From Candidatus Harrisonbacteria bacterium (GTDB taxonomy: Bacteria; Patescibacteriota; Minisyncoccia; UBA6257; 1-14-0-10-44-23), in the NCBI GenBank assembly GCA_023255625.1, contig JAHFLF010000001.1, positions 290,965-354,964 of the forward strand: 64,000 nucleotides of DNA, given 5' to 3'. Each line of letters starts with the position of its first letter. Position 1 is the stretch's first letter. Under the pieces are notes generated by a model, which saw only the letters and a list, made by a program, of their open reading frames with translations, ran no database searches and was not told where the DNA came from. Below are positions 2,307-40,137 of the stretch, piece by piece. The position numbers were made by a program, and so were the translations under genes.

Positions 2307-2562
2307 CGTAGCTCCTCCATGGTTGTTGCCATGTTCCTCGGTGTAGCGAACTACACCGAAGCGAGGAACATACGAACCCAGGGCGACATGCCCCGGAATT
2401 GTTCATCGGTGTAGAGTTGAGAGGTATTACATCTCAGCTCAACCCACCGGCAGCGGAACCATTCCGCATAGCCACTTCATGCCGCCTCCTTTCTCCGTTT
2501 ATTTGGCGGTAAAATATATTATAGCATAATTTATATAGATATGTCAAGCATTTCTATGTATT

Positions 2563-2619
2563 AGTGTACTAGTACACTGTAACAGGAGAAAGGGCTATTC
2601 AGCAGCGTACTAGTACATG
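2563..2619. promoter_or_regulatory. two trp-operator-like palindromes: AGTGTACTAGTACACT (2563-2578) and GCGTACTAGTACATG (2604-2619)
   Basis: Perfect 16-bp and near-perfect palindromes built on a GTACTAGTAC core, the same core as the E. coli TrpR operator half-sites. They sit at the junction of the GC-rich block and the AT-rich backbone. Confidence 0.4.
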
Positions 2620-2644
2620 AATACATGGCAGATTTTAGACCGCG

Positions 2645-3040
2645 CTACAAATTTTCGTACTGCCGGATGTCACAGGTCTCGTGCCAATTTTTTATTGAGG
2701 CCAGCGGGTCTTTTATAGCAATGGCGACAAGATCAATCCGATACCCCAGCTTTTCGTTAACATACTGCGGATAGCGATTTGCAAACCCCTGTGCTAGTCG
2801 CCGCACACGCAACCGCTTCTCTTCATTAAAATGCATCTCTGGAATAAACATTGAGACTGGCCCGGCCAGCGTTTTCACTTCCACAAACACCAAAACCCCT
2901 TTTTGACCCCGCGCAATCACATCAATCTCGCCAACATGTTTCACGCGGTGATTTCTAACCAAAATCCGATATTTCTTTTCTTTCAGGAACTCACAGCATA
3001 TATCCTCCCCTATTTTGCCGATTTCGCTCTTGGTACGCAT
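2645..3040 (-). CDS. yraN: YraN/UPF0102 family endonuclease
   Basis: 131 aa with the GEIDVIAR...LVFVEVKT pattern typical of UPF0102 (Holliday-junction-resolvase-like fold). Confidence 0.65.
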   Translation of the reverse strand: MRTKSEIGKIGEDICCEFLKEKKYRILVRNHRVKHVGEIDVIARGQKGVLVFVEVKTLAGPVSMFIPEMHFNEEKRLRVRRLAQGFANRYPQYVNEKLGYRIDLVAIAIKDPLASIKNWHETCDIRQYENL

Positions 3041-3106
3041 AAATTTATACTATCATATCTCTAAAAAATGTGTTATACTGTATAACATGAAATAAAACCG
3101 GTATGG

Positions 3107-3134
3107 ATACCGTTACGGCAAACATATTTCACGG
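3107..3134. repeat. left arm of a 28-bp inverted repeat (ATACCGTTACGGCAAACATATTTCACGG) enclosing the LAGLIDADG ORF
   Basis: Its reverse complement recurs at 3696-3724 with one mismatch. Seen directly in the sequence. Confidence 0.8.
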
Positions 3135-3136
3135 TT

Positions 3137-3598
3137 ATGAACCTAACGAATGAATACATTAGAGGACTTATAGACGGTGAGGGCTGCTTTTCTTTTTGTA
3201 CAAGCAGTTTCGTAGTAAGAAATGAGACTCTCTACCGCGGAAAGGTACCTGCATTCCAAATTTCAATGCATGTTAGAGACAAGGATCTTATTGAAGGAGT
3301 GCGGGATCATCTTGGCCTGAAAAATAAAGTCTATGTTTATAAATCTTCACAAAAAGATGGAATAAAAAGAGGAGATAAGGCAACCCTAATAGTCAGGAAG
3401 GCTTGTGACCTGAGAATGATAATAGTTCCATTTTTCTATGGTAAATTGCGCGGTCACAAGGGAAAGCAATTCAAGGAGTGGCTAGAAAAAATTGGATCAG
3501 ATGAAAGAGTTGGTGAAAAATTCAAAATTATCCATAGACTCTATAAATGCGGATATTGGGAGAAAATCCAGAATATACCGGAAAAATTCAGGAGTTAA
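3137..3598 (+). CDS. LAGLIDADG-family homing endonuclease (single-motif type)
   Basis: N-terminal YIRGLIDGEGCF is a textbook LAGLIDADG motif. 153 aa, basic C-terminus. Confidence 0.7.
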   Translation: MNLTNEYIRGLIDGEGCFSFCTSSFVVRNETLYRGKVPAFQISMHVRDKDLIEGVRDHLGLKNKVYVYKSSQKDGIKRGDKATLIVRKACDLRMIIVPFFYGKLRGHKGKQFKEWLEKIGSDERVGEKFKIIHRLYKCGYWEKIQNIPEKFRS

Positions 3599-3647
3599 AA
3601 ATTGTTTTACACTTTTCGTGAAACAAATTCGTGATTCAGCAAACAGG

Positions 3648-3656
3648 TTATCCACA
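3648..3656 (+). promoter_or_regulatory. perfect DnaA-box 9-mer TTATCCACA inside an AT-rich iteron-like region
   Basis: Exact consensus DnaA box. It is surrounded by repeated GTTTTAC(G/A)C and GTGAAACAA motifs across 3600-3930. Confidence 0.35.
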
Positions 3657-3695
3657 GAATCTTCGTAAAACAAATAATGTTTTACGCTTTTTGAA

Positions 3696-3724
3696 CCGTG
3701 AAATTTGTTTGCCGTAACGGTATG
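3696..3724. repeat. right arm of the 28-bp inverted repeat enclosing the LAGLIDADG ORF
   Basis: Reverse complement of 3107-3134. Confidence 0.8.
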
Positions 3725-4086
3725 ATATGGAATTCCTGTTCAAATCAAAAACGATGTTTGCCAGAATGTTTCACACTCTTTTAGAGTATTTTGCAAATCC
3801 CCGTTCAGAACAATTGTTTCGCATCTTTTAAACATTTTTTGCAAGTGTAAAACATCCTGTAAAACAAAACCTGCCCGCCTTTGGAGGGAATGTTTTACGC
3901 TTGTGTTTTACAAAAAATTAGCGTGAAACAACGAATATCCGGCAAAATAATGCGGCAATCCGGCAATTGCCTTATTTTTTGCCGTATTACAAAATTCACA
4001 AAATTATCTTATACCCATATTGGCTTGCTGATCAACATTGCCGCCGTATATACCATCAGATGAAGCATGCTCGCTTGACTATCATG

Positions 4087-4104
4087 CAGCGTACTAGTAC
4101 GCTG
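4087..4104. promoter_or_regulatory. 18-bp perfect palindrome CAGCGTACTAGTACGCTG upstream of the TrpR-like gene
   Basis: Perfect palindrome with GTACTAGTAC core, about 50 bp upstream of the start at 4158. Confidence 0.5.
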
Positions 4105-4157
4105 GTACATAGAGACGGTGTCTTTGAGTAATCAATATTAGTAACCAATAAAATAAT

Positions 4158-4442
4158 ATGAATAACCAATACAAAGAAGAGTTAGTAGAACTGCTGCGCA
4201 CTGCAGCTAAAGACGCGAAACTGTTTGAGGCGGTGCTACGCGACATACTCACGCCGTCTGAATATAGAGAAATTGCTAATAGGTGGCAGATAGTTAAAAA
4301 ACTCGCGATGGGAGAGGACCAGCGCGCGATTGCCCAGGATCTTAAGGTTGGTATCACGACCGTCACTCGCGGCGTCCATGTGCTAGAAAACTCGGGCGGG
4401 GGATTCAACCAAATGCTTAGTAAACTCGTCGCACGAAAATAG
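4158..4442 (+). CDS. TrpR/YerC-YecD family (Trp-repressor-like) DNA-binding protein
   Basis: 94 aa. LTPSEYREIANRWQIVKKLAMGEDQRAIAQDLKVGITTVTRG matches the YerC/TrpR-like HTH family. Confidence 0.6.
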   Translation: MNNQYKEELVELLRTAAKDAKLFEAVLRDILTPSEYREIANRWQIVKKLAMGEDQRAIAQDLKVGITTVTRGVHVLENSGGGFNQMLSKLVARK

Positions 4443-4476
4443 CGCCGCTACCCTTCGGCTCATATGACCACTTGAC

Positions 4477-4510
4477 TATGTTACAGTGTACTAGTACACT
4501 GTAACATAGC
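4477..4510. promoter_or_regulatory. 34-bp perfect palindrome CTATGTTACAGTGTACTAGTACACTGTAACATAG downstream of the TrpR-like gene
   Basis: Perfect palindrome centred on GTACTAGTAC. Could be an operator, a bidirectional hairpin, or a recombination site. Confidence 0.5.
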
Positions 4511-4728
4511 TGATTTATCTTCGTTATTACTTAATATGAACTGCTTGACCATGGCAACTAAAAACTCTGCAGAAATTCTCCGCACCTGGTGGGCCGCCCG
4601 ACATACTCGAAGGGCGCGCTTTGTGTTTGCATAACGATTTTTTATAAAATCTTTCGAACTTAAAACCCGCTCTTGGAGCGGCGTTTCTGTTTTCTGAACG
4701 AGATCAGGGGGCTGGATGGAGGTGCTTC

Positions 4729-5427
4729 ATGCCGAATATTACGCCTGTCGATACCGAGCGATTGCTTAGACCCATCACTTCGGAACGTGAGCGGCTCGAG
4801 CGATCAATTTCGAAGTCTCTGCCGTTTGAGCTCTGGGTCACTGGGATTCTGATGCTCATGTTACTCGGCGTACACGTTTTCTGGCCCGCAGACAAACTGG
4901 ATGCACCAATCGTCGCCCCTGCTGTCGAGTCGCAACAGACCGTCCCAGATTTGGAGACGACGACCCAGGCCAGTCATGAGGTGTGCCGGCAGATTCTGCC
5001 AGAGACGATGCTCGAGGCGGCGATAGAGCCCCAGGAAGAACGAACCTACCTCGTCACCTTCAAGACCAAGAAGAACAGCAATTGGACCGACTTCGGGGCG
5101 ACCAGAGAGACCAAGGAGGTGGATGAGGCGACATACAACAAGCACAAGATCGGGCAGGAGGTTAGCAGAAAGCCCGTCGCCTTCAGCTTCCGTGACTACT
5201 ATGCCGTGACCGTCGTGGAGAAGCAGATCAAGCGGAAGTTCTTCTGGATCGACCGAATGGAGAAGCGTCTGCAGGTTGGCGAGCGTGAGTTCCAAGCCGT
5301 TCTTGCAGAATTACAGTCTTGTGGCCGGGCGCCTAAGTTGCCTGTCGCTGCAGGCAAGATTCATTCCTATACCGTGGAGAAGCCGCTCGCTGAAACCGAA
5401 GGAAGCAACTCCAGAGGTGACAAATGA
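4729..5427 (+). CDS. hypothetical protein with N-terminal transmembrane segment (232 aa), GC-rich island
   Basis: ATG preceded by GGATGGAGGTG. Hydrophobic stretch near the N-terminus. Confidence 0.55.
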   Translation: MPNITPVDTERLLRPITSERERLERSISKSLPFELWVTGILMLMLLGVHVFWPADKLDAPIVAPAVESQQTVPDLETTTQASHEVCRQILPETMLEAAIEPQEERTYLVTFKTKKNSNWTDFGATRETKEVDEATYNKHKIGQEVSRKPVAFSFRDYYAVTVVEKQIKRKFFWIDRMEKRLQVGEREFQAVLAELQSCGRAPKLPVAAGKIHSYTVEKPLAETEGSNSRGDK

Positions 5428-5660
5428 AGAAGTTCCTGAAGTACTTCCTGCTCGCGCTCGTAGCTTCTGCGGTGGCGTACACCGTTCGGGCTGAAGAGCT
5501 CGACTGGAATTGGCAGTTCAAGGTCGTGATGTTCGATCGCATCAGGCCAGGGTCACTGGACCCAAGCTGGTGTGGCTGGACTCACATGGCCGTCTGGAAT
5601 CTCTTCATCGCTTGGTGGTACTACACCTACGAATGGAAGAGGCCCCATCGGTTGTGGTGA
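5424..5660 (+). CDS. small secreted/membrane protein (78 aa), Trp-rich
   Basis: ATG overlaps the upstream stop (ATGA). Preceded by AGAGGTGA. Signal-like N-terminus. Confidence 0.5.
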   Translation: MKKFLKYFLLALVASAVAYTVRAEELDWNWQFKVVMFDRIRPGSLDPSWCGWTHMAVWNLFIAWWYYTYEWKRPHRLW

Positions 5661-5698
5661 TGGAGTTTTAATCAACGGACCGCAAAGAGGTGCTAAAC

Positions 5699-6844
5699 AT
5701 GGATATCAAGCAGGTAATGAAGAGGCATGCGTACCAGAACATGCCGCTCGGATACGATGCTGCGTACGAGTTGGGCATGTTGGCACTGCGTGGGTGTGCC
5801 GGAGACCCACTCGCACAGATCCAGAGCATCGTTGCGCTCTCTGCACTGCACACGCGTGCGACCTATCACGCGGCGGATGACGCCGCCGCGGAACAGATCG
5901 CCGGTGTCTGCGCTACCGTCTTTGATCACGACATCGCGACCTCTACGCTCGGCTTCATCGAGCCGGTCGGGGATGTGATGGACAACTGCGGGATGGGTGG
6001 GGACCTGGTTGTGACGGCGAATGTCTCGACCTTGGCCGCACTGATCGCCGCTGCTGGCGGAATCCGAATGTGCAAGCACGGATCGCCAGCGAATGCCGAC
6101 GGTGGTCGACACGGCAGCTCTGACTTCATCGATCTACTGGGCATAGAACGCTGCCCAGAGGTGGGAATGGTCGAACGCTGCGTCGATGAACTCGGCTTCG
6201 GCTACAGCGAGGCATTGGATACACGCTACAAGCGAATCCACTGCCAGACACACGAGGTAGCGCAACTGCCGCACATGAATGACATCATCGGCCCGGTCAC
6301 CAACCCGGTCCGTCCGACCAAGCTGAAGAGGCGCGTACTCGGCATCAACCACCTTATCCCGCCACGGGTGGTCGCCAAGGCGTTCAGAATTCTCAACACT
6401 CGCGGTATCACCGTGGTCACGCATGGATTGTTCGTTCGCGGATTCACCGATGACAGAACGAGCGCATCCGGCATGGACGAGGTTTCAATCTGTCAGGCCG
6501 GCACTCTTGTCGCTGAACTGAAGGATGGAGAGATCACGGAATACTGGCTGACCGCTGAAGACTTCGGTCTGAAGTCGGTCGCAAGCGCCGCAATCTCGCC
6601 GGCGTCGGGCATGTCAAAGGGGGAATTCTCAATGCGCATCTTGTGCGGCGAGATACAGGGACCCCCGCTGCAAATGGTTCTTGCCAATGCAGCGCTCTTG
6701 TTCAAACTGAACGACCCTGCGCTCACTTACCCGGAGGCGTATCAACGGGCAGAACAGATTCACCGCGACAAGCTCGACCAGAACATCGCCACAGAAGTGG
6801 CTCGGCTCATCCCGAGTCAGAAGGGAGCAATGTGTCTCAACTGA
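5699..6844 (+). CDS. glycosyl transferase family 3 protein, anthranilate phosphoribosyltransferase (TrpD)-like
   Basis: MDNCGMGGD...KHGSPANADGGRHGSSDFIDLLGI resembles the TrpD GTGGD/KHGNR region. ATG at 5699 preceded by AGAGGTG. Substrate unknown. Confidence 0.5.
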   Translation: MDIKQVMKRHAYQNMPLGYDAAYELGMLALRGCAGDPLAQIQSIVALSALHTRATYHAADDAAAEQIAGVCATVFDHDIATSTLGFIEPVGDVMDNCGMGGDLVVTANVSTLAALIAAAGGIRMCKHGSPANADGGRHGSSDFIDLLGIERCPEVGMVERCVDELGFGYSEALDTRYKRIHCQTHEVAQLPHMNDIIGPVTNPVRPTKLKRRVLGINHLIPPRVVAKAFRILNTRGITVVTHGLFVRGFTDDRTSASGMDEVSICQAGTLVAELKDGEITEYWLTAEDFGLKSVASAAISPASGMSKGEFSMRILCGEIQGPPLQMVLANAALLFKLNDPALTYPEAYQRAEQIHRDKLDQNIATEVARLIPSQKGAMCLN

Positions 6845-7668
6845 CGAAGAAAAATGTGGGCATCATGATCGACTACGACGGGGTCGTCGTGTTGCAAACA
6901 ACGCAGCGGCCCACCTGTGACCCCAAGGCGATGTTCGAGCGACTCGCCCGAGCAGGGGTGATCATCATCCCGAACTCTGACACGCCAGTGGATCGTCTCA
7001 TGAGAAACTTCGAGGAAGCTACCGGCATCAAGCCAGCGCACCTCGTCGCAGAGCGCGGAGCAGTAGTCGTGAGCGAAAAAAAGCGCCACTACTACAAGCC
7101 CCAAGGCGACTTGTTCAAGCAGTACCGCAGTGCAATACAAGAAGCGCTGACCAGGGCCGGCATCGAAGTACTCATCAATGATGCGGCGAACTGGGTGCGC
7201 GATGTCCGTACGCATACACCCAACAGTCGCATGGCAATTCTCGACGGCATGCGCGAACTAAGCTTTTGCGCCTTCTTCCGGAGGACTGACGAATCCGGAG
7301 GGCCGTACATCGACCACGAATTCATGCAGGACTGCCTGCACGTCATCGACACCGTGGAGCCGCCAGTCGAGATCGAGAGGCAGACGGACAAATGTTTCGG
7401 GATCATGATCGGTAGCATTCCCGGAGTGAGCAAGACTACCGGTTTCCGGATTCTGCGTGATCTCTTCCGTGAGCCAATGCAGTGGTACATGATTGGAGAC
7501 GGCGAGGGCGACCTGATCGACGCAGATGAAGTAACGCATTGCGCGGTCGGCAATGCACAAGACGCACTGATCCACCGATGCGCGTTCCGAGCAAAACATT
7601 CGTACACCGACGGATTGCTCGAATGCCTCGACTGGATCAGCGCAAAGGAGAATCTATCAGAGCACTAG
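6832..7668 (+). CDS. HAD-superfamily hydrolase (Cof-like)
   Basis: IMIDYDGVVV (HAD motif I DxDG) and MIGDGEGD near the C-terminus. Likely GTG start at 6832 after AAGGGAG. Overlaps the end of the upstream gene. Confidence 0.55.
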   Translation: MSQLTKKNVGIMIDYDGVVVLQTTQRPTCDPKAMFERLARAGVIIIPNSDTPVDRLMRNFEEATGIKPAHLVAERGAVVVSEKKRHYYKPQGDLFKQYRSAIQEALTRAGIEVLINDAANWVRDVRTHTPNSRMAILDGMRELSFCAFFRRTDESGGPYIDHEFMQDCLHVIDTVEPPVEIERQTDKCFGIMIGSIPGVSKTTGFRILRDLFREPMQWYMIGDGEGDLIDADEVTHCAVGNAQDALIHRCAFRAKHSYTDGLLECLDWISAKENLSEH

Positions 7669-8383: not shown

Positions 8384-9197
8384 GCTGGCGAAATTTTCGC
8401 AAATATTCGGAGGAAAAAATAACATAGTTATCGGAGCTATTCATCTTCCTCCTCTCTTAGGTTACGCAGATTACCCAGGTATAAAAGTCGCACTTAAGAA
8501 TGCATTAGCTGACCTGCGGGCATTCGAAAAAGGCGGTGTTCATGGGATTATTTTTGAAAACAATTACGATATACCTCATAAAGAAAAAGTCAGCCCTGGC
8601 ACAATCGCTGGGCTGATGTATGTCGGATCGGTGCTTCGCAAAAAAACAAAATTACCGCTAGGAGTTAGCGTCTTATGGAATGATTACGAGTCGGCATTGG
8701 CCATAGCAAAAACTTTAGATCTCCAGTTTATCCGTATCCCGGTATTTATTGATACCGTGAAGACTAATATTGGTATTATTCAGGGTAAGCCGGAAAAAGT
8801 GATTGCCCTGAAACAAAAAATAGCGGCCGCGAAAATAATGCTTTTTACTGATATTCATGTTAAACATTCAAAGGTCATTTCAAAAATGAACCTGGAAGAA
8901 TCAGCGCAAGCGGCTATGAGCAATGGGTCGGACGCAATCATTGTCACAGGTGCTTGGACAGGGCAGAGTCCGGATATCGCAACATTAGAAAAATTAAGAA
9001 CTAGAATAAAAAAATTCCCGCTGCTTGTCGGCAGCGGATTTAGCGCTCAGAATGCACGCACACTGATGCGCCATGCCACTGGGGCGATAGTCAGTACTGC
9101 TCTTAAAAATGGGCATTCAAAAGCTAATGAACAAAATGTCAAAAGTTATAATCAAAGAATATCATTGGAAAAGGTCAAACAGCTCTTTACTTTATAG
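8373..9197 (+). CDS. BtpA/SgcQ family TIM-barrel protein
   Basis: N-terminal IGAIHLPPLLGY resembles the BtpA family VIGMVHLLPLPG motif. Overlaps the upstream gene by 11 nt. Confidence 0.5.
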   Translation: MKDKLAKFSQIFGGKNNIVIGAIHLPPLLGYADYPGIKVALKNALADLRAFEKGGVHGIIFENNYDIPHKEKVSPGTIAGLMYVGSVLRKKTKLPLGVSVLWNDYESALAIAKTLDLQFIRIPVFIDTVKTNIGIIQGKPEKVIALKQKIAAAKIMLFTDIHVKHSKVISKMNLEESAQAAMSNGSDAIIVTGAWTGQSPDIATLEKLRTRIKKFPLLVGSGFSAQNARTLMRHATGAIVSTALKNGHSKANEQNVKSYNQRISLEKVKQLFTL

Positions 9198-9326
9198 CAG
9201 TCATATGCTATAGTTTTTTTGTTATGAAATTCCAGCCGACCCACAATTTATTTAGTAGTTATTACTACGCCGCATATATAACCACCCGGGTGCGGTAATC
9301 TTTCGTTCTATCCAATAAGTTCTACC

Positions 9327-9352
9327 AACCGCCCCCGAGCGGTTTTTTTGTT
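9327..9352 (+). terminator. rho-independent terminator ACCGCCCCCGAGCGGT followed by a T-tract
   Basis: Stem-loop followed by TTTTTTTGTTTTT. Confidence 0.5.
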
Positions 9353-9499
9353 TTTCGCACCAGCGAAAAACAACCCTGCGTAGCTTGTAGAGCGAAGCAC
9401 GGGTCAGCATTTTCTCGGGGAAAATTGTCCGCACAAGCGTCTTGAATGAAACCCTCATTCACTTGCGCGGACTGGCTCTTTGAGAAAGGAATAGCGAGT

Positions 9500-9706
9500 A
9501 TGCCGCCGTACATGGGGAGTATCGATGGGTCGACTAACGGCGAGCTGCCAAGGCGTTGCTCGCACTGGCCGACTTCTGAGGGTCGTGTCCCGTGCAACAA
9601 CTGCAACGCCTCGATCGGTTGCGGGCAGCCGCACTTCAAATGGCAGTGCGCGGAGTGCAAGCAATGGTTCTGCGTCAGGCCCGACCAATTTGGTCGGGAC
9701 GGGTAG
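9500..9706 (+). CDS. small Cys-rich protein (CNNC...C...CAEC), possible zinc ribbon
   Basis: ORF in GC-rich block. Start uncertain (ATG at 9446 or 9500). Several CxxC pairs. Confidence 0.35.
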   Translation: MPPYMGSIDGSTNGELPRRCSHWPTSEGRVPCNNCNASIGCGQPHFKWQCAECKQWFCVRPDQFGRDG

Positions 9707-9784
9707 TGCGCAAGCCGGCGCGAGCTTCAGGGAGCGTTCGCTCCCGCTCGCGCCGGCCAGAGTTCTTTCCGAGAAGGAGATGCG

Positions 9785-10273
9785 ATGTCGAAAGAGACGC
9801 TGACTCACCAGTTGTTCGCGTTGCAGTGCGGCATGGTCTTGAGGGACTACGACAACCCGATCGAGGACTCCAAGCGGCAGGAGATCAACGTCTCCGATGC
9901 CATCGCTCCGGAAGACCTCGGGTGCGGGATCTTCTTCGAGTTCCCCGGGATGACAGACGAACACGCCCCGAAGGCACTCCGCGGCCAGCAGTTCCTGGCG
10001 GTGGCAGTGCTCGAAAAAGACCGCGTGTTTGTGTCGACGGTCATCGATCCCGACACTCATCGCGAGAAGGGACTCAAGCTCGCAGCCCTGATGTTCGGCC
10101 GGTTCACTCGTCCGTCGGCCGCAAGGCTGGCGAACCCGGACAGCATCTGGCAGTGGGCGGCTCGATCCTCTCGGGCCAGCCTCGACGGCTACGAGAGCGC
10201 CGAGGTGATCGCTCGCGAGACGCCGTGCCACTGCGGGCGCATGCATGCCCCGGCGAACTGCTGGGCGACCTAG
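9785..10273 (+). CDS. hypothetical protein (162 aa)
   Basis: ATG preceded by AAGGAGATGCG. Overlapping ORFs in other frames lack an SD. Confidence 0.5.
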   Translation: MSKETLTHQLFALQCGMVLRDYDNPIEDSKRQEINVSDAIAPEDLGCGIFFEFPGMTDEHAPKALRGQQFLAVAVLEKDRVFVSTVIDPDTHREKGLKLAALMFGRFTRPSAARLANPDSIWQWAARSSRASLDGYESAEVIARETPCHCGRMHAPANCWAT

Positions 10274-10276
10274 CAG

Positions 10277-10843
10277 ATGCACGACACCCTCGGCATCATC
10301 GCTGGCATCCTGACGCTCGCTGGGTTTATCCCGGCGGGCGTCGGGGCAGTACGCGGACCAGTTCGCCCAAGCAGAGCGACTTGGCTCATTTGGGCGGTGG
10401 AGGCCATCTTGATCTACAAGACCTTCGCCGCCGCAACTCCAGACTCAAGCGCTCTCTGGATCCCGCTTGGATTTACCGTTGGAGCCGCAGGGATGTTTCT
10501 CCTGTCTGTTCCGTTCGGTGAAGGCGGGTGGAGCACGCTCGACAAGTGGTGTCTGGCAGGCGCAGGTGCCACGATCATCTTCTGGCACCTCGTTGGACCT
10601 GTCGCTGGACTGCTCGCCGGTATCGCCACCGACATGATCGGAGCGGTGCCGACGGCGGTCAAGACATGGAGAGATCCGAAGAGCGAGAGTCGTGCGCAGT
10701 GGTTGCTTTGGTGGCTCGGTGCCATCTTCAACCTCTGTGCGATCAAGAACTGGCAATCCGTGGAGGCGGCGTATCCGCTTTACGGATTTGTTCTGACAAC
10801 CACGATGGCCGGCGTGATTGCCGGCAGAAGGAATGGTGTCTGA
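10277..10843 (+). CDS. multi-pass membrane protein, paralog of the 46542..47126 product
   Basis: Shares TWLIWA..., K(T/S)W(R/Q)DP(K/W)SE and NLC(A/S) motifs with the AT-rich paralog. Confidence 0.5.
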   Translation: MHDTLGIIAGILTLAGFIPAGVGAVRGPVRPSRATWLIWAVEAILIYKTFAAATPDSSALWIPLGFTVGAAGMFLLSVPFGEGGWSTLDKWCLAGAGATIIFWHLVGPVAGLLAGIATDMIGAVPTAVKTWRDPKSESRAQWLLWWLGAIFNLCAIKNWQSVEAAYPLYGFVLTTTMAGVIAGRRNGV

Positions 10844-11238
10844 TGCCGCCGTATCTGAGAGAGCTTCCGACGTGGTATGGAGATCCGCCGCCGCGTTGTC
10901 AGCACCCCCACCAAAAGCCATCACGTTCGCGTTGCTCATCGTGTGGCTATCCGGGCATCGAGTTCGTCTGTTCGAAGTGCGAAGAGAAGGTCAAATTCGT
11001 ACCAGACGAGCGACGCAAAGAACGCAAGAGTCCTCCAAAGGGCAAATGCGTCTATGAGCACAAAAGCGCCTGTCGCCATGACGGGAAGCTCTATCCGGAT
11101 CGGTGCTTCCATTGCGAGTGCGTGACGATGAAGTACAAGTGCACCACATCTAAAACCTTCATCGAGTCCTCTCGTGGTTCGCCCAACGTCGAGAGGGAAC
11201 CGGGGAAAGGCGAGTTTTCGGGAGCTGAGAGTTATTAG
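10843..11238 (+). CDS. Cys-rich protein (131 aa) with several CxxC motifs
   Basis: ATG overlaps the upstream stop (TGATG). CSSC, CSKC and CFHCEC motifs. Confidence 0.45.
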   Translation: MPPYLRELPTWYGDPPPRCQHPHQKPSRSRCSSCGYPGIEFVCSKCEEKVKFVPDERRKERKSPPKGKCVYEHKSACRHDGKLYPDRCFHCECVTMKYKCTTSKTFIESSRGSPNVEREPGKGEFSGAESY

Positions 11239-11337
11239 CCGGAGGTGTAAGACTCCGGCAAGCAACGCGGCGGCATCGACCCACAAGGTTGATGACCGCC
11301 GCGCTTCATTTTTCAATATTAAAAAACAACAATTTTG

Positions 11338-11409
11338 TGGGCGGTGCAGGGAATGATCCTGCGGCCTACTGCGTGTAAAGCAGTCGCTCTACCACTGAGC
11401 TAACCGCCC
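11338..11409 (-). tRNA. tRNA-Val (anticodon TAC)
   Basis: Cloverleaf read from rc: GGGCGGT acceptor, GCTCAGTGGTAGAGC D-arm, anticodon loop TTTACAC, T-loop. It sits at the right border of a GC-rich block. Confidence 0.8.
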
Positions 11410-11544
11410 ACTTAGTGTGCAAAAGCACACTGTGCGCCTAGGAGGAGTCGGACCTCCGACCAGAATGTATAAGATTCTTGTTTTACCGTTAAACTATGGG
11501 CGCCCATATAGACTAGCGGATTGAGGAAGTTTATTCAATGAGAA

Positions 11545-11577
11545 CTGGGCGAGATCCCTCGGCTTCGGGATGACAGA
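11545..11577. repeat. GGGCGAGAT-hairpin repeat, copy 1 (ACTGGGCGAGATCCCTCGGCTTCGGGATGACAG)
   Basis: Hairpin ATCCC / GGGAT around TCGGCTTCG. Other copies are at 25349-25385 and 50903-50940. Confidence 0.7.
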
Positions 11578-11583
11578 AAAAAA

Positions 11584-13422
11584 CTAAATGGCGAGCGGCT
11601 TAAGGTCAAACTCCTTGATCAGCTCATTAAACTCCTCCTGTTCAATCGTTTCCTTCTCAAGCAAGCGCTTGGCAATTGCATCCAGAATTTTCTTGTGCGT
11701 TATTAGCATCTTCTTGGCCAGATCCTCGGCGCTGTGGAGGAACGCGGAGACCTCGCTGTCTATTTTTGCGCTCATTGCTTCAGATGAACGCTGTTCGTGA
11801 TGAAAATCACGACCCATGAACACCGCCTCCTCGCCATTGGCAAACACAACCGGGCCTATGACATCGCTCATGCCGTACTTGGTAACCATTCGCCGCGCAA
11901 GTTTGCTGGCCTCCTGCAAATCACTGCTCGCTCCGGTTGAAACATCTTTAATCACAATTTGTTCGCTGGCATAACCACCCATCATGGTCGCCATCTCGGC
12001 CATGAACTGTTTCTTGGTTTTCAGCCGATTCTCTTCAGTCGGGAGCTTCATGGTGTACCCACCGGCACGACCACGGCTGATAATTGAGATTTTATGAACT
12101 GGATCAGCGTCTTGTAGACTGGCCGCTACTAGCGCATGACCGGCCTCGTGATAAGCGGTAACATTTTTCTCACGATCGCTAATAATTCTACCCTTGCGCT
12201 CCGGGCCAAGAACCACTTTTTCAATAGACATAAACAAGTTGTCCTGGCTGATTGTTTTTTTCTCCTCACGCGCCGCCAAAATCGCGGCTTCATTTAAGAC
12301 ATTCTCAAGATCAGCGCCGGAAAATCCAGGAGTGCGAACTGCAACTGGACGCAAATTAACACCCTCGGCCAGCGGTTTATTTTTCGCGTGAATCTTTAAG
12401 ATCTCCTCGCGATCAGCAATATCCGGCAGATCAAGCACCACCTGGCGATCAAACCTGCCTGGGCGCAGCAATGCGGAGTCAAGCACATCCGGACGGTTAG
12501 TCGCAGCCAGCACAATCACCTGATTTTCCCGCTCAAAACCGTCCATCTCAACCAGAATCTGGTTCAGAGTCTGCTCTCGTTCATCGTGGCCGCCGCCCAT
12601 ACCGGCGCCACGCTGCCTGCCAACCGCGTCAATTTCGTCAATAAACAAGATTGAAGGCGAATGTTTCTTTGCCGTCGTAAATGCATCGCGAATACGGCTG
12701 GCACCAACACCAACAAACATCTCCACAAATTCAGAAGCCGAGATATAAAAGAAGGGGACGCCACTTTCGCCGGCCACTGCCCGCGCGAGCAGAGTTTTAC
12801 CGCTACCCGGACTGCCCATGAGCAAGACACCACGCGGAATCTTTGCGCCCATGTCTAAAAACTTTTTTGGATTTTTCAAAAAATCAACAATCTCAATTAA
12901 TTCCTGCTTAGCTTCTTTTAATCCGGCAACATCAGTAAAGCTGACTTTTTCTTTTCCGCCCGGCGCAGAAAGTTTTAAATTGGCCTTACCAAAACCTAAA
13001 ACTTGATTTTGGCCGCCTTTAGCCCCGCGCATCATAAACCAGAAAAATCCGAGCAAAACTAAAAGAGGCAAAAGAGATTGAGCGAGCACGCCGATCCAAA
13101 ACTGCACGCCGGACTCTTCTTTAACCTCAAGGGCGACCTGGCGAAGAGCCGATTGATCAACCCCGTAATTCTTCAAAGTTTCCGAAAATCCGGATTCAAA
13201 CTCTTTTTTGGCGGTTGCCTTCGTACCGTCTTTGAGGGTAATCGCTAAGTCGTTGCCGGAAACTTCTATCCTGGTTACTGCCCCGGCATTGATTTTATCA
13301 ACCAGCTCATTGACCGTCAGCGCAGCGGGCTTGGGCTCTCCGCCCATGAAAAATGAAAAAACTAAAGCAACCATGAGCAGAATCGTGGCGACTGCGGTAA
13401 TATTTTTGGAAAATGATTTCAT
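11584..13422 (-). CDS. ftsH: ATP-dependent zinc metalloprotease FtsH
   Basis: Walker [15 protein letters not shown] region, HEAGHAL zinc site, N-terminal TM segments. 612 aa. Confidence 0.9.
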
Positions 13423-20694: not shown

Positions 20695-20758
20695 AGTTCA
20701 ACTCCGACGCTCACAGTAGTGAGGTCGGAGCCCCGACCTACTGCGTCTGGGTGGATAA
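20695..20758. repeat. about 64-bp direct repeat, copy 2
   Basis: See 20272-20335. Confidence 0.8.
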
Positions 20759-20808
20759 GACAAGGGGTTTCTAACCCCTCAATCTAGGTTCGATTCCTAG
20801 CGGGGACA
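20757..20808 (+). other. tRNA-like 3' fragment (anticodon-arm-like AGGGG-TTTCTAA-CCCCT, T-arm CTAGG-TTCGATT-CCTAG, CGGGGAC-A-CCA) with no adjacent 5' half
   Basis: Canonical T-loop and encoded CCA. The only candidate 5' acceptor strand (GTCCTCG) lies at 20274-20280, immediately before repeat copy 1. Confidence 0.4.
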
Positions 20809-20868
20809 CCATGGATAGTTAATCGGTTAGTCAGTTAGTTGGTTAGTTGGTAAAACGAAAAACTAATT

Positions 20869-26932: not shown

Positions 26933-27275
26933 GACAATAAATGATTGGAATAAGTGAGAAGCGCAGATTTTGATGCAGTTCTAGGCGCGGGAGGGCGGTT
27001 TGTGAGCCGTACTTTTATATAAGTACGGTGAGCAAACCGACGGGACCCGCAACAACGAACTGCTCAAAATATGCATTTCTCACACACAATAACTCTGTAG
27101 TTGCCCCAAATTACGATTCCGGTTCTTGCGATTCCTCCGAAGGAGGATCCGCCTATGGCGGAAAAGTGTCGTGACTTAGAGCTCCACGACCAACACTCTT
27201 TTTCTATCAATCCAGTATATAAATATACTGAAGTGTCGCTTTTTCCTAATCTCCATTTACAGAGAAAGAAAAAAG

Positions 27276-29180
<1,905 letters not shown>

Positions 29181-29630
29181 TAATAAGTAATTTGAAATTC
29201 ATCTAGCCGAAGCCAGATGAATAACAAACACTCTTGTTTTGGGACAACTACACAATTATTGTTGCATACTTTATATCTGCTTGAAGGATATAAAGATTTT
29301 GATTTCCTAATCATTCATTTATCTTTATAGTTTTTAGTATCTTTCGATACAAACATTTTCAAAGAACGAAAGGTATACTCAATTCACTTTTTGAAGTGAA
29401 AATAATACACCCGTCTCGGCGACCTATCGTATGATCTGCAATACGACGACGAGACGGATGCGCTGGTCTGATATATGTTTTTCCGCCAGAGGCGGATCCG
29501 CCTTCGGCGGACAATTTGTACGAATTTCGCGGGATGTTTCGCTGGTTCGTTTGTACTGCCTTAAGCCAGTACTAATGTGGCTTCTAGTATAGTCGACCGA
29601 ATAATAAAGTCAAGACCTTATTAACGAAGC

Positions 29631-35913: not shown

Positions 35914-36168
35914 TTAATGCTGGGTCAAGCTTTGCCGCAAACGGAGTTTTAACTTCGCCAGCGCCCAGCCATGGTACTTAAGTTGCTTCTCGCGCTCTCG
36001 AGCGTCAGCTTCAACGCGATAGGCCTCGTAGTATATCAGTTCCCACTTATGCCCTCGCGTAGAAAAAACCTTGCCGTTGTTATGTGCGGCAAAGCGAACT
36101 CGCAAATCGTTTGTACTTCCAGTGTACAACTCATTGAGTTCATTACGAATTACATAAACATAATGCAT
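35914..36168 (-). CDS. GIY-YIG nuclease superfamily protein (YhbQ-like), second copy
   Basis: MHYVYVIRNELNELYTGSTNDLRVRFAAHN carries the GIY-YIG motif. Flanked by inverted ACCCAGCACTAACTT copies. Confidence 0.65.
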   Translation of the reverse strand: MHYVYVIRNELNELYTGSTNDLRVRFAAHNNGKVFSTRGHKWELIYYEAYRVEADAREREKQLKYHGWALAKLKLRLRQSLTQH

Positions 36169-36300
36169 GCAGTGATTCTATCACTGCATGCAGGCAAAAG
36201 TTAGTGCTGGGTAAATAGAAACGAATTGTGAGTAGGCGATACTCGGGGATTATATACCGGAGTGCCTATCAGCAACGTTCGCGGATTCCTGTGATTGAAT

Positions 36301-36447
36301 GATTCTCCCTTTCCTAAAGGGAGTACTCCGACGTTACGTCGGAGGGAGGGATTTAAGTCCTCCAAAAAACCAATTGATTCGCAGACCCGGCTTTTCTTAT
36401 TCTCCCTTTCCTAAAGGGAGTACCGCCACTAGGCGGGGAGGGATTTT
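36301..36447. repeat. two tandem REP/MITE-like elements (36301-36355 and 36396-36447) at the left border of the largest GC-rich island
   Basis: GATTCTCCCTTTCCTAAAGGGAGTA-CTCCGACGTTACGTCGGAG-GGAGGGATTT and CTTATTCTCCCTTTCCTAAAGGGAGTA-CCGCCACTAGGCGG-GGAGGGATTTT. The central hairpins differ but keep their pairing. Confidence 0.8.
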
Positions 36448-36594
36448 CTCTCTTCTGCAAAAGCCGGATAAGCGAGTCCGTTGATCGCGCACAAGGTGTG
36501 CGCGGAAGCGAACTCAACTCGTGCATCTTAATGGTAGAGATGCAGCAGAGTAGGATTTTCCCCCTAGGCGAAAAGGGGAAAGGAGAAATATACC

Positions 36595-37326
36595 ATGCGT
36601 CGTAATCCAGAAAGTTGCGTTGCGCGCGCCCTGCGCGCGCAGGGCGACCTCGCGAAGCGCGAGGCGGCCCAGAAGGCCGCGGCGGCTCGTGCCGCCGCGG
36701 AAGCTCGGCGGAGCGCCCTGCTCCGCGAGCACTCCGTCCTCGCCAGTTGGCGGGGCGGGTTCGAGGAGGCGGCACGCCGCTTCCTCCTGTGCGCCGCCAA
36801 AGGCGGCGCATTCCACGCGGACGCCGCCGCCTGGCTCGCCGGTCTCTCCGAGGGAGTGGTGGTCTCGGGCTGGGATGTCCAGCGCGCTGCCACTTTGATG
36901 GTGGCCGAGACCGAGGCGCTGGAAGCCGTCGGTAGCATCCGCCGCGTGCCGCGTACGCCGGCAGAGCTCGATGCTCTGCTGACCGCGGCTTGGCCGGTCG
37001 CGGTCGCCCGGGACGGGCGGACCGAAGGATACAACGGCCCGGCCAACGGTTTCGACCGTTGGAACGGGCAGTTGACGCCGCCCGAGGGGAAATCCTACCT
37101 CGGTGGCGAGGTCGCCGACGCCGGCTTCGTCTGGAACGCGGGTGGGCGTTCCACCCCCGGACTCCGTCCGCTCGCGGACGGTCGGTGGGAAGTGTTGGTC
37201 GCCGTCCCGCGGTGGTACCTGGAGGGGGACTCGACGGCGCTCAACGCCGTCGGGGGCTACTGCTCCATGGGCGCGCCGCTCCCGCGGTCCCAGTGGGACT
37301 GGCGCTGCGAGCCCCTGCGCTCGTAG
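36595..37326 (+). CDS. hypothetical Ala/Arg-rich protein (243 aa), island gene 1
   Basis: AAAGGAGAAATATACC before the ATG. Overlapping alternative-frame ORFs are probably GC artefacts. Confidence 0.5.
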   Translation: MRRNPESCVARALRAQGDLAKREAAQKAAAARAAAEARRSALLREHSVLASWRGGFEEAARRFLLCAAKGGAFHADAAAWLAGLSEGVVVSGWDVQRAATLMVAETEALEAVGSIRRVPRTPAELDALLTAAWPVAVARDGRTEGYNGPANGFDRWNGQLTPPEGKSYLGGEVADAGFVWNAGGRSTPGLRPLADGRWEVLVAVPRWYLEGDSTALNAVGGYCSMGAPLPRSQWDWRCEPLRS

Positions 37327-37723
37327 TCGCCACCCCTCACCCGTTTTGAAGCAACGGGAACGATGAGGTAACGCTTCAAGAGAGGAGGTGAGTCGTAAGG
37401 GGTCTTTTCATCCTGGTTTTCGCCATCAAGCAAAACCAAGGAGTTTTCGGGAATCAGTCCCGACGAGTATCAGCTTCTGAGCGGCTGATACTTTAGAATG
37501 GTTAGCTCTTCGCGCTGGTGGGGGAGGTCAGACTCGTTCTGATCTCTCCCCACCGCAAATTTTATGAATTCGTATCAGGATTTTTCTGGATTCCCGCTTT
37601 CGCGGGAATGACAGACAGAAAATTGATATGAGTTCGTAAGGTACGGGCTCAAGAATCACTACCACGCGTTGCTGTCATGGGCAGCGCGTTGGTTTCGCCC
37701 TGACGGGCAATTGGAGGTTTACC

Positions 37724-38212
37724 ATGACCGAGCCGACATACACAGGGGAAGCGATGAGCTTTCGGAAGCGGCTGCCGGAGCCGCTGGCTGGGTTGGTCCG
37801 AGACCTCTCGGACCAACGGACACGGTTCGCCGCGTTCCAGTTCTCCGGGTGGCTGATCGGCGCCTTGGAGGCGGTGTCCCCCCGGAAGTTGGTTCCGGGG
37901 CCGGAGTACATCAAGGACGAAAAGGTCAACGCCAGGCGGGAGCTGGCGTTGTCGGCGGCACGGAGTGCACACGAACTTCTCGAGTGGTACCAAGACATGG
38001 GCTGCAGGGGGCGCCTGTGGGTATCTCGTCTTCTCCCCACGCGCGCCGAGTATGGGAACATCTCTGCCTCCCTGAGGGACGGCATGGAATTCCTCCGTCA
38101 GGAGGATGTCGTCGTTGCGCTCAATCGCGCGATGGAAGAGGCGAAGAATGCCTCGGATCAGGAGGTTGACCTCCCTGCGCGCAAGAAGGAGAGATTCGCT
38201 CGGCCGAGCTGA
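37724..38212 (+). CDS. hypothetical protein (162 aa), island gene 2
   Basis: TGGAGGTTTACC before the ATG. Confidence 0.5.
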   Translation: MTEPTYTGEAMSFRKRLPEPLAGLVRDLSDQRTRFAAFQFSGWLIGALEAVSPRKLVPGPEYIKDEKVNARRELALSAARSAHELLEWYQDMGCRGRLWVSRLLPTRAEYGNISASLRDGMEFLRQEDVVVALNRAMEEAKNASDQEVDLPARKKERFARPS

Positions 38213-38544
38213 CCGAGCGGCGTAAAAATACCAGAATGGCTCTCTGGCAGTGAGTTAAAATCCAGTAGCTCATGCGAATGTAATCCGCTCATCGGATACT
38301 GGTTCAGCGTGCGAACAAGACTCGCGCACGCTGGAAAGGGTTTCAGGAGTCAGCCTTGGTGAGGGGTCGGCAGCGATGTCGGCCCCTCCCAGAAAAACTG
38401 CGTATTCGCGGGTGGAAGTTTCAAACGGAAATTTTTACGCGCGAGTCCGTTGTAACCGGATTCGAAAAGAGAAAACCGCTATCGCATCCTTCGTGGTAGG
38501 AGGTGCGATGAGCTTCGTCCTTCGGGACAAAAGGAGTGACTACC

Positions 38545-38865
38545 ATGAGTCTAAGGGGAGACGACAGCTATCTCGGACCATTCCACCGTCAGCGCACCCC
38601 GGCCGAGGCGGCGGCTGACGCGCCGCATGAGCTCCTCCGGAAGCAGGAGCTTGACGCCGCCGAAAGGATGTACCGCGCGGCGACTGCGGCCGAGTCGCCG
38701 CGGAAATCCAGGAGTGTCGTAGATCTCCTGGATCAGGGCTGCGCGGCGACTGCGGCGGAGAGGGAGTACCTCGCCGCCCGACATCGGGCCGAGAGACGCT
38801 TCGGCAACCGGAACATCCCGGGGGCTGACGGAGGGCCGGGTGGTGGCCAAACGCCCGACGCGTAG
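38545..38865 (+). CDS. hypothetical protein (106 aa), island gene 3
   Basis: AAAAGGAGTGACTACC before the ATG at 38545. Confidence 0.5.
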   Translation: MSLRGDDSYLGPFHRQRTPAEAAADAPHELLRKQELDAAERMYRAATAAESPRKSRSVVDLLDQGCAATAAEREYLAARHRAERRFGNRNIPGADGGPGGGQTPDA

Positions 38866-39156
38866 CCGGGCAGGTCAGCCGAAAACGCCGGGTTAGCCAC
38901 CGGCGTAAATATTCCCAGAGTGGCGCTCTGGGCTGGATGACAAAATACACCCTGTCATCCTGTGGGTTTCTCCGGCGCTGTTAAACGCCGGTGATAAGGG
39001 TAGCGCGTGGCGGAGGAGTGGGAAGACCCCACCCTCCGCCGCACAAAATTCAAACAAAGATTTTTGCGATGGACATTTACATTATGCGTTCCTGGGGACG
39101 CTTGGTCTATCGCAGAAACCTCTGCTTGAAAGACAGCTGGGGAGAAAGAGTGGTTT

Positions 39157-39375
39157 ATGGAGCTGTGGGAGGTCAGTGTCACAGTCCTGTCACCAAGGAG
39201 GGGGACTGTGAAGGCAGAGGTGAAGTCTTCCGAGGCAGAAGTTCTAGATCTTTGCAGAAATTACCCTGCAAGGTATTTAGGACTTAAAATTTCCGTGGCG
39301 AAGATGGAGTCAGAAGGGGTTCAGTGTACTGACCCGCTCTTCTGCGTCATCGACATATCCCCGGGAGGTGATTAA
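39157..39375 (+). CDS. hypothetical small protein (72 aa), island gene 4
   Basis: GGGGAGAAAGAGTGGTTT before the ATG. Confidence 0.4.
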   Translation: MELWEVSVTVLSPRRGTVKAEVKSSEAEVLDLCRNYPARYLGLKISVAKMESEGVQCTDPLFCVIDISPGGD

Positions 39376-39386
39376 TCCGCGTCCTG

Positions 39387-39770
39387 ATGATCACGGGACG
39401 GTTCGCTGGTCAGGTGCGGGAGATCCCGCCGACCACCGACCCGATGGAGCTCTTCGGCTTCTGCGCCCGGGAAAACTGGGCGTGGGAGGTGGAGTGGGCT
39501 TCGGCAACGAGCACACAGGAGAAGTTCGTCTGGGGGCGTGCTGACATGGTCGGCCGTTGCCTGCGAGCGCTCCTGCATGGCCGGCCGGTTTTCCTCAGCG
39601 GTAAGAGATATGCCGCCAAAGGAACCGATGCGGCTGGCGTAGTTGCCGGACAGCTCGAAGACGCCATCGTTAATTCCGGCACCAACGTTCGCGTTGGCTC
39701 AGATGACGAGGATGGCGTCGTCATTGAGCTCTGCTCGGACGAAGAGCCCGGCAGTTCTGCGCGCAACTGA
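39387..39770 (+). CDS. hypothetical protein (127 aa), island gene 5
   Basis: GGGAGGTGA upstream. Acidic C-terminus. Confidence 0.4.
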   Translation: MITGRFAGQVREIPPTTDPMELFGFCARENWAWEVEWASATSTQEKFVWGRADMVGRCLRALLHGRPVFLSGKRYAAKGTDAAGVVAGQLEDAIVNSGTNVRVGSDDEDGVVIELCSDEEPGSSARN

Positions 39771-39849
39771 CAAAGCGCGCTATCTCAAAACCTCTGCTTG
39801 AAACACAACGGAGGAGAAAGGTTAGCCGTTGCGGAACCGGAGGGCTAAG

Positions 39850-40137
39850 ATGGAGCGGCTACGAAAAGTAGCCGCAAAACTGTGTCTGAGAGTTCGACTC
39901 TCAGAACAGTATTGTGTCAGCTACGACACAATCATGCGGTTCGACAGGGTAGTTCACGCGGAAGGCGTGAGATTTATCCTGGCGTTTCCAGGGAGCGTAG
40001 TTGCGGTCTTCTTCAGCAGTAAGACGCTTTGGTCAATTGTTGAAGAAGCTGGCGCCCTTTTGGCGGTATACGATAGCGTTGACACTATCAACCGCCTTCT
40101 TAAGGAAGAGGAGGAAGAGGAGGAATTGGAGGGATGA
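39850..40137 (+). CDS. hypothetical protein with poly-Glu tail, island gene 6
   Basis: CCGGAGGGCTAAG before the ATG at 39850. Ends with EEEEEEELEG. Confidence 0.4.
   Translation: MERLRKVAAKLCLRVRLSEQYCVSYDTIMRFDRVVHAEGVRFILAFPGSVVAVFFSSKTLWSIVEEAGALLAVYDSVDTINRLLKEEEEEEELEG

Follow-up and report, generated by a model that had tools for sequence, protein, structure and literature searches.

A probable free-standing LAGLIDADG homing endonuclease gene at a fixed site, the yraN-proximal end of a repeat array, in Paceibacteria

What is a single LAGLIDADG open reading frame (ORF) doing in an AT-rich, repeat-laden intergenic stretch of a bacterial chromosome? The question is raised by a 64,000-nucleotide (nt) stretch of contig JAHFLF010000001.1 from Candidatus Harrisonbacteria bacterium (assembly GCA_023255625.1), referred to below as the window. 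An earlier, sequence-only reading of the window pointed out the ORF, which is intact, begins with ATG, encodes 153 amino acids (3137–3598, plus strand) and matches Pfam LAGLIDADG_1, and offered three candidate explanations for the region: a homing-endonuclease landing pad, a degenerate intron, and an origin of plasmid, phage or chromosomal type. Its claims about the ORF, repeats, boxes and palindrome were rechecked on the 64-kb window sequence, and the locus was compared with those fetched from relatives (numbered L001 and so on). Only the landing pad found support: the ORF occupies a fixed site beside yraN, relatives carry arrays that lack the ORF, and similarity among the ORFs is decoupled from that of their flanks. 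In our judgement the ORF is probably a free-standing LAGLIDADG homing endonuclease gene with a fixed landing pad at the yraN-proximal end of a box array, in a clade of Paceibacteria (Parcubacteria).

The region is indeed AT-rich, with a guanine plus cytosine (GC) content of 0.36 from 3041 to 4157 compared with about 0.48 in the surroundings, and contains no long ORF besides 3137–3598. The yraN gene had been misplaced at the far end of this stretch: it lies upstream of the ORF, divergent and 96 nt away, and the far end adjoins a Trp-repressor-like gene (4158–4442). The features of the locus are as follows.

2645–3040, minus strand: yraN (UPF0102 family, PD-(D/E)xK nuclease fold; Pfam UPF0102, E = 3.6e-18), the invariant left neighbour of the array and the endonuclease gene
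3071–3087: 17-base-pair (bp) palindrome, TGTTATAC-T-GTATAACA, within the promoter region of the divergent genes, from direct sequence reading
3107–3136: left arm of an inverted repeat, with GGCAAACA and the degenerate half-box TATTTCAC, ending at the ATG; 29 of 30 positions are complementary to 3694–3723
3137–3598, plus strand: predicted free-standing single-domain LAGLIDADG homing endonuclease gene, 153 amino acids (Pfam LAGLIDADG_1, AlphaFold2, Foldseek)
3603–3930: array of ten exact TGTTTYACR half-site boxes, by motif count
3603, 3678, 3767, 3891 and 3904, plus strand: exact TGTTTYACR boxes of the array
3617, 3664, 3846, 3858 and 3922, minus strand: exact TGTTTYACR boxes of the array
3648–3656, plus strand: single perfect DnaA box TTATCCACA(G), unique in the window
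3664–3686, plus strand: everted box pair GTAAAACA-AATAA-TGTTTTAC, which is also a terminator-like hairpin, then CTTTTTG
3694–3723: right arm of the inverted repeat, with GTGAAAT and TGTTTGCC; 29 of 30 positions are complementary to the left arm
3934–3990: beyond the box array, clustered copies of a second palindromic motif of the ATCCGGCAAT / ATTGCCGGAT type, from sequence reading and a palindrome search

The short repeats noticed at the outset are real, with 12 copies of TGTTTYACR in the window, ten of them within 3603–3930, where degenerate copies of the TGTTTGCC and TGTTTCGC type are interspersed among the exact boxes. What has to be revised is their description as iteron-like, because they are of the parS half-site type and belong to a host array. 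The DnaA box at 3648–3656 is exact, as had been said. The inverted repeat around the ORF was confirmed with arms of 30 nt, 2 nt longer than first given, and the promoter palindrome with coordinates 3071–3087. This palindrome resembles a degenerate box pair, with one mismatch per half to TGTTTTAC, and TGTTAT.. palindromes like it are found at the equivalent position in L001, L003 and L005.

A scan of one genome per species yielded 55 orthologous loci, or 56 with the window. A yraN homologue adjoins the ORF in 54 of the 56, on the opposite strand in 51 of these 54, and the median start-to-start distance is 51 nt; the other neighbours (FtsH, NusA, H+-PPase, UvrD, ComM, S20 and others) vary among loci. 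In the first three contexts, the ORF is divergent from the UPF0102 gene and is followed by 200–400 nt of non-coding DNA rich in TGTTTCAC/GTGAAACA. Throughout the orthologous loci the ORF is single-copy and present at one site only. The nearest box upstream of its ATG, often 8–35 nt away, is minus-oriented in 26 loci and plus-oriented in 13, and the nearest box after its stop codon is plus-oriented in 33 loci and minus-oriented in 11. The ORF sits between a minus-oriented and a plus-oriented half-box, that is, between two units of the array. Complete 16-mers, palindromes composed of two half-sites, flank it in L027, L046 and L052, and in L059 the cassette splits a perfect palindrome into CAACAAACATTA and TAATGTTTGTTG. 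In L087, a relative of L056 that lacks the ORF, three 16-mers stand at the place that the ORF takes up in L056.

In L090 something else occupies this site, namely a GC-rich insert of about 350 nt between array boxes 2 and 3 (upstream of yraN at 4001), without a long ORF or an Rfam match; in its relatives L027 and L052 the endonuclease gene is found at that position.

Metagenomes were scanned with an alignment of YraN, which provided 80 yraN loci. Both the boxes and the ORF are missing beside the yraN genes of the outgroup. In the Paceibacteria-type group, about a dozen loci are filled by the ORF and at least 14 are empty, with 6–23 boxes, mostly complete 16-mers, directly upstream of yraN. One empty locus (L103) has seven exact canonical parS sites, TGTTTCACGTGAAACA, within 500 bp. 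In another (L108), about ten variant sites, among them TGTTTCACGGCAAACA and TGTTTGCCGGCAAACA, precede TTGTCCACA and TTATCCACA. A third (L078) combines four 16-mers with one everted pair and a CCGGCAAT cluster, beyond which lie a DksA-like gene and comM. The endonuclease gene is absent from about half of the unbiased yraN-array loci. The comparison with homologous loci without the ORF, which the sequence-only reading had suggested, thus recovered the same yraN gene and box array. Since the array is present in loci that lack the ORF, the array is the host element and the ORF is the addition; the array is tied to yraN, at whose start codon it begins, in one clade of Paceibacteria.

The history of the ORF is different from that of its surroundings. 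On a neighbour-joining tree of the 130-amino-acid YraN protein, which is unreliable in detail, filled and empty loci interleave; the closest filled–empty pairs have 70% YraN identity, and filled–filled pairs go down to 35%. Pairwise identities of the LAGLIDADG proteins are poorly correlated with those of the adjacent YraN proteins (Pearson 0.28, Spearman 0.12), and the discordances are large. L030 and L058 share 87% identity in YraN and 48% in the LAGLIDADG protein. At the nucleotide level, L025 and L039 are 58% identical in the ORF, 82% in yraN, 79% in the array and 83–86% in the outer flanks. The reverse is seen for L056 and L059, with 87% in the ORF, 67% in yraN, 57% in the array and 44–65% in the outer flanks, and for L030 and L032, with 77.5% in the ORF, 66% in yraN and 41–45% in the flanks; in the latter pair only the ORF and the 5' end of yraN are aligned by blastn. 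Some copies have decayed: that of L046 has an in-frame stop, that of L063 is internally deleted to 99 amino acids and lies beside an intact array, and L062 and L069 have only partial matches to the ORF. For five pairs of intact copies, the ratio of non-synonymous to synonymous substitution rates (dN/dS) is 0.03–0.16. The ORF is patchy in its distribution and horizontally exchanged independently of its flanks, with strong purifying selection on the intact copies.

This pattern has a precedent in T-even phages. Their seg and mob genes, which encode free-standing homing endonucleases, spread by intronless homing, and carriers are immune through a change of the target sequence. As with these genes, the ORF has a fixed position between host genes, is present or absent among relatives and shows mosaic similarity with co-converted flanks, and carrier immunity would likewise come from a changed target instead of from its interruption. 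The phage genes are of the GIY-YIG or HNH type, whereas the gene described here is of the LAGLIDADG type, lies on a bacterial chromosome and has a target that is presumably non-coding.

The match of the window ORF to Pfam LAGLIDADG_1 (PF00961) has E = 2e-8 and 35.5 bits, compared with a cut-off of 23.1. The AlphaFold2 model of the 153-amino-acid protein, with a predicted local distance difference test score (pLDDT) of 94.6 and a predicted template-modelling score (pTM) of 0.86, has its helices (H) and strands (E) in the order H, E, E, H, E, E, H of the LAGLIDADG fold. With this model, Foldseek retrieved members of the I-OnuI family (I-OnuI, I-SmaMI) and the single-domain I-TnaI at E of about 1e-7 and template-modelling (TM) scores of about 0.6, and a profile of 29 homologues matches I-OnuI-family chains with E down to 1.9e-20. 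In the motif YIRGLxDGEGxF, the motif acid E15, which is at the metal-binding position, is invariant among the 29 homologues, as are 24 other residues. The relatives of the protein, about 146 with identities of 42–62%, all come from metagenome-assembled genomes of Parcubacteria/Paceibacteria. The ORF has its own start and stop codons and is intergenic, and residence in an intron or intein was not encountered. On the strength of its fold, the invariant E15 and the signs of mobility, we consider the ORF to be a functional, free-standing homing endonuclease gene, with cleavage itself as a prediction.

Because it has a single LAGLIDADG domain, the enzyme is presumably homodimeric. In this respect it resembles known single-domain LAGLIDADG homing endonucleases, which also consist of one domain of about 150 residues with the same fold and the acid kept at the end of the motif helix, are expected to bind a palindromic site as homodimers and have a patchy taxonomic spread (I-ShaI was compared). 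Unlike them, it is encoded in an intergenic array of repeats and not within an rRNA gene, an intron or an intein. Its nearest sequence relatives are the enzymes of the I-OnuI group (LAGLIDADG_1) rather than I-CreI.

A second protein family, of about 221 amino acids with an N-terminal helix-turn-helix and the motif 'LAGLMLYWGEG', is encoded near the yraN locus in 10 of the 56 loci. One member (L005, 8884–9552) lies about 1.4 kb from the endonuclease ORF and appears to be related to the ORF at 45667–46377 of the window.

How would such a gene come to occupy one end of the array? The enzyme would cut the array sequence in genomes that lack the gene, and repair from a gene-carrying copy would then install the gene together with some flanking sequence, that is, homing with co-conversion. 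Carrier genomes would be protected by the loss or rearrangement of the palindromes in their arrays. What suggests such protection is the scarcity of 16-mers where the ORF is present: strict copies were counted in 5 of 53 filled loci (mean 0.21) as opposed to 9 of 14 empty loci (mean 3.5), and among loci with at least six boxes the relaxed 16-mer pattern has a mean of 0.75 in filled and 3.8 in empty loci, in a comparison that ignores kinship and in which the empty loci were chosen for having at least six boxes. Besides this limit and the uncertain detail of the YraN tree, several observations weigh against the homing model. L049 and L050 are filled and have apparently intact ORFs, and they nevertheless retain three or four 16-mers. 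The cut site is conjectural and could be the 16-mer, the spacer between boxes or something else. Strong purifying selection and universal synteny also fit a gene that benefits its host. Finally, the lone DnaA box conserved within the array is not accounted for by homing.

The nature of the array itself can be approached through its boxes. The 12 copies of TGTTTYACR, counted on both strands of the window, compare with 2.1 expected, and none of 100 shuffles reached 12. Over the 56 loci, the 8-mers GTGAAACA and GTTTCACA are about 110-fold enriched in the flanks of the ORF relative to the rest of the loci, and in most loci the densest TGTTT-NN-C cluster directly follows the stop codon. The two middle positions of the box (6–7) differ by lineage and may be CA, TA, AT, GT, AG or CG. 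Across loci, half-sites are arranged as 16-bp palindromes (TGTTTNNC joined to GNNAAACA), as everted pairs (GNNAAACA-N4/5-TGTTTNNC, 16 occurrences), as convergent pairs with gaps of 7–9, and as direct repeats with a period of 10–12 bp. The 16-mer palindromes include exact TGTTTCACGTGAAACA, three times in L046, and TGTTTCGCGCGAAACA, three times in L049, with further parS-type variants in L049, L050, L078, L082 and L108; within 20-kb loci, near-parS 16-mers are nearly confined to the yraN array. The canonical parS 16-mer, TGTTNCACGTGAAACA, is the sequence used in ParB–parS studies (10.1101/724823).

In comparison with the parS centromere sites bound by ParB (Spo0J), the likeness is that the box is a parS half-site and that exact 16-mers exist, seven in L103 and three in L046. 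The array differs in being dense (4–11 sites per 500 bp) and fixed to the start of yraN, in the lineage-dependent variation of half-site positions 6–7 and in having many half-sites in arrangements other than that of parS. Chromosomal parS sites as a rule lie close to the origin. We considered that the boxes could be read by a ParB-type protein, by YraN itself or by the endonuclease. Most likely, with a chance that we would put at about even or slightly less, the array would be a centromere-like loading site for a ParB-type protein. Weighing against this role, the window has 14 boxes and no complete 16-bp parS palindrome, signatures of ParA and ParB (GERRxRA, the deviant Walker-A motif) were not detected in 1.43 Mb comprising the window and the fetched loci, and parA or parB families were not detected among the 30 window ORFs put through Pfam. 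Because no ParA or ParB signature was found, the parS reading is an argument from sequence identity. In the loci without the ORF, no conserved small DNA-binding ORF was found beside the arrays. No description of YraN with LAGLIDADG, oriC or parS in Patescibacteria was found in the literature searched; a paper on the TIGR-Tas system mentions ParB-like genes in candidate phyla radiation (CPR) bacteria, and that system is unrelated.

The box array is followed by a second palindromic motif, which forms clusters with lineage-specific variants in L018, L050, L057, L063, L075 and L078. The variants are ATCCGGCAAT/ATTGCCGGAT, AATCCTGCAATTGCAGGATT, TCTGCAAT and ATTTCCGGAAAT (window 3934–3990 and 4037–4049; L047, L075, L022, L059), and this lineage variation suggests another, co-evolving dimeric DNA-binding protein. 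A further repeat, AAACCTAC(AT), is 28-fold enriched beside the array, with 24 copies in 17 loci, and is found 50–260 nt after the ORF in L012, L018, L049, L057, L058, L059 and others. The first eight bases of AAACCTAC are those of the reported Thermotoga DnaA box AAACCTACCACC.

If the array is of the parS type, a bolder picture can be drawn, in which a selfish LAGLIDADG nuclease preys on the chromosome's own centromere-like array and cuts its palindromes in order to home. In these tiny genomes the array would then serve as the site of ParB-type segregation or loading, and the conflict would drive both the erosion of 16-mers to scattered half-sites in carriers and the drift of positions 6–7. 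We regard this as possible, if doubtful.

Several other explanations of the locus have to be set against a homing endonuclease gene. The ORF could be a domesticated, vertically inherited host gene, no longer a mobile nuclease, whose product binds the boxes and regulates yraN or organises the array. Its absolute synteny with yraN and the array, the half-box 7–14 nt before the ATG in many loci, the dN/dS values of 0.03–0.16 with 25 invariant residues, and the GNNAAACA-N4-TGTTTNNC palindromes, whose 8+4+8 geometry is what one would expect of the target of a LAGLIDADG homodimer, would all be accommodated. However, such a gene should not be missing from roughly half of the unbiased yraN-array loci, nor should its similarity be decoupled from that of yraN and the flanks or its dead copies coexist with intact arrays. 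One known domesticated LAGLIDADG protein is WhiA, which has two degenerate domains and a helix-turn-helix and has lost the catalytic acids. The ORF shares with it a LAGLIDADG fold encoded at a conserved position of a bacterial chromosome but has a single domain with an invariant acid, is dispensable and is swapped between lineages; we therefore think domestication unlikely. Decidedly unlikely, too, is a chromosomal origin in which the AT-rich box cluster and the DnaA box form oriC, with boxes that have diverged from DnaA boxes and an endonuclease gene that just happens to lie inside. The locus does look like an oriC in its GC content of 0.36, its perfect DnaA box and its short boxes, which face both ways and, as direct copies, are spaced by about one turn of the helix. 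The 10–12-bp period of these direct boxes recalls arrays of low-affinity DnaA sites, TGTTTCACA agrees with the DnaA box at 6 of 9 positions, the GC skew changes sign locally near 3 kb, and genes diverge from the site at some loci. The DnaA box also recurs: it keeps its relative position in L050 and L057, where the order is boxes, TTATCCACAG, N7 and an everted box pair; a perfect TTATCCACA stands at the equivalent place in several lineages, and a perfect DnaA box occurs near the ORF in 11 of the 56 loci, an 8-fold enrichment. On the other side, the box at 3648–3656 is the only perfect one in 64 kb, and one-mismatch boxes are not enriched (18 versus 11.4 expected), with only one near the locus, inside the ORF. 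Neither dnaA nor dnaN was detected in the window by a six-frame scan for the DnaA C-terminal signature or by Pfam on 30 of its ORFs, and only one of the 56 loci has that signature within 10 kb, about as many as chance would give. The skew switch at about 3 kb is not sustained, the skew being positive only between 3 and 11 kb and negative again beyond, up to 64 kb, with the cumulative minimum at the right end of the window, away from the locus; skew and gene strand in the 10-kb flanks of 28 loci are mixed and not origin-like overall. Conventional origin-like regions exist elsewhere in relatives. In L072–L074, which were found by a search with the DnaA C-terminal fragment of L032 (the matches being short gene calls), TTTTCCACA/TTATCCACA boxes lie upstream of dnaA and in the dnaA–dnaN spacer, with TAC/TAT trio-like repeats, an AT-rich stretch and no TGTTTNNC cluster. 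Moreover, positions 6–7 of the array box vary by lineage while the true DnaA box stays canonical, and the 16-mers equal parS, not DnaA boxes.

The inverted repeat prompts two further explanations, a small element bounded by terminal repeats and an RNA stem. The arms (3107–3136 and 3694–3723, 557 nt apart) are complementary at 29 of 30 positions, with a score of 27 and z = 20.8 relative to shuffled flanks, and long flanking repeats are also found in L031 (40/40), L052 (21/21), L027, L036 and L018. Together with the many short repeats of the region, this could point to a transposable element, or to an integrated plasmid or phage element with an iteron origin. Yet the flanking repeats differ between loci in sequence and position; they are significant in about 6 of 53 loci, nothing beyond chance is seen in about 40 of the 53. 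Repeats also persist at loci without the ORF. There is no transposase or Rep gene, the ORF is single-copy and always at the same site, and the bases outside the arms (GGTATGG before the left, GATATGG after the right) form no clean target-site duplication. Collections of phages, plasmids and viruses yielded no relatives apart from a weak match to one plasmid and two short fragment matches in viral contigs, and the boxes, of 8–9 bp in both orientations with irregular spacing, are unlike the 17–22-bp direct repeats of plasmid or phage iteron origins, so that an element of this kind is highly improbable. Scarcely credible is a degenerate intron or structured RNA, in which the arms would pair and loop out the ORF, as the sequence-only reading had envisaged. 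The RNA of 3095–3735 does fold with the 30-bp stem closed (-182.6 kcal/mol, z = -7.75). Against this, the covariance search for introns gave no Rfam family in 2400–4700 at E ≤ 10, Rfam found only tRNAs when applied to six arrays without the ORF, the ORF region does not interrupt any host gene, and the stem is missing at most orthologous loci. A terminator-like hairpin with a T-run (3664–3686) precedes the right arm, and the weak left arms of L003 and L005 coincide in part with a TATAAT box and so would not be transcribed. The inverted repeat was rejected as a defining feature of the locus because it is seldom significant and is built from boxes each time. In L044, which shares 70% YraN identity with the window, a sequence related to the right arm comes directly after the stop codon of the ORF. 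We infer that the repeat of the window is particular to its lineage and consists of two box-bearing units around the insertion, rather than being a transposon end or an RNA stem conserved among loci; its arms may have been made alike by gene conversion or may be the halves of a longer palindrome that was split.

In three of the relatives' dnaA–dnaN loci, dnaA is called as two ORFs (the AAA+ part and the Bac_DnaA_C part) that are 15 nt apart (L072, 610–1869; L073, 8901–10186; L074, 70–1196). The three assemblies are independent; either the gene is truly split, or its copies share an in-frame stop codon, or recoding takes place.

The known settings of homing endonuclease genes are introns, inteins and phage genomes; in CPR bacteria, they are insertions in rRNA. 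The family described here probably homes into a chromosomal element that is non-coding, repeated and presumably protein-bound, and would supply natural enzymes with parS-like palindromes as their targets. The cis element, with 4–11 parS-type sites fixed to the start of yraN, lineage-specific half-sites and a second family of palindromes, is apparently undescribed in the literature searched. Should the array prove to be a centromere, a selfish nuclease would here be in conflict with chromosome segregation, and the locus would offer a way into the chromosome organisation of very small uncultured bacteria. For annotation, ORFs of this kind should not be taken as markers of introns or origins.

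Several other features of the window were recorded. Four palindromes around GTACTAGTAC, the trp-operator half-site of E. coli, are found at 2554–2584, 2595–2625, 4079–4112 and 4476–4509 and bracket the region of yraN, the endonuclease gene and the array. They also flank the Trp-repressor-family gene at 4158–4442 (Pfam E = 1.8e-16), and farther downstream is a TrpD-like gene (5690–6844). The arrangement has the look of an autoregulated regulon of the TrpR type. The sole Intron_gpI match in the whole window at the Rfam gathering threshold (45372–45644, minus strand, 60.9 bits) is unrelated to the locus. It lies between ORFs 45667–46377 and 42533–45115, both on the minus strand, of which one has an HTH_23 domain and a LAGLIDADG-like 'IALYWAEG' motif and the other is a class II ribonucleotide reductase.

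The 16S rRNA match at 27274–29184 (minus strand) spans 1911 nt compared with a model of 1533 nt, which implies an insertion of about 380 nt, too short to encode an endonuclease; insertions in 16S rRNA are common in CPR bacteria. Blocks with a GC content of 0.57–0.61 at 1–2400, 5000–7000, 9000–12000 and 36000–40000, as opposed to about 0.46–0.48 for the genome, may be foreign DNA, and the ORFs of the first block (1–2400) have no Pfam match. A short second tRNA-Arg(TCT) (20745–20811, plus strand; Rfam, 32.8 bits) follows the normal tRNA-Arg(TCT) by 70 nt and may be a degenerate duplicate.

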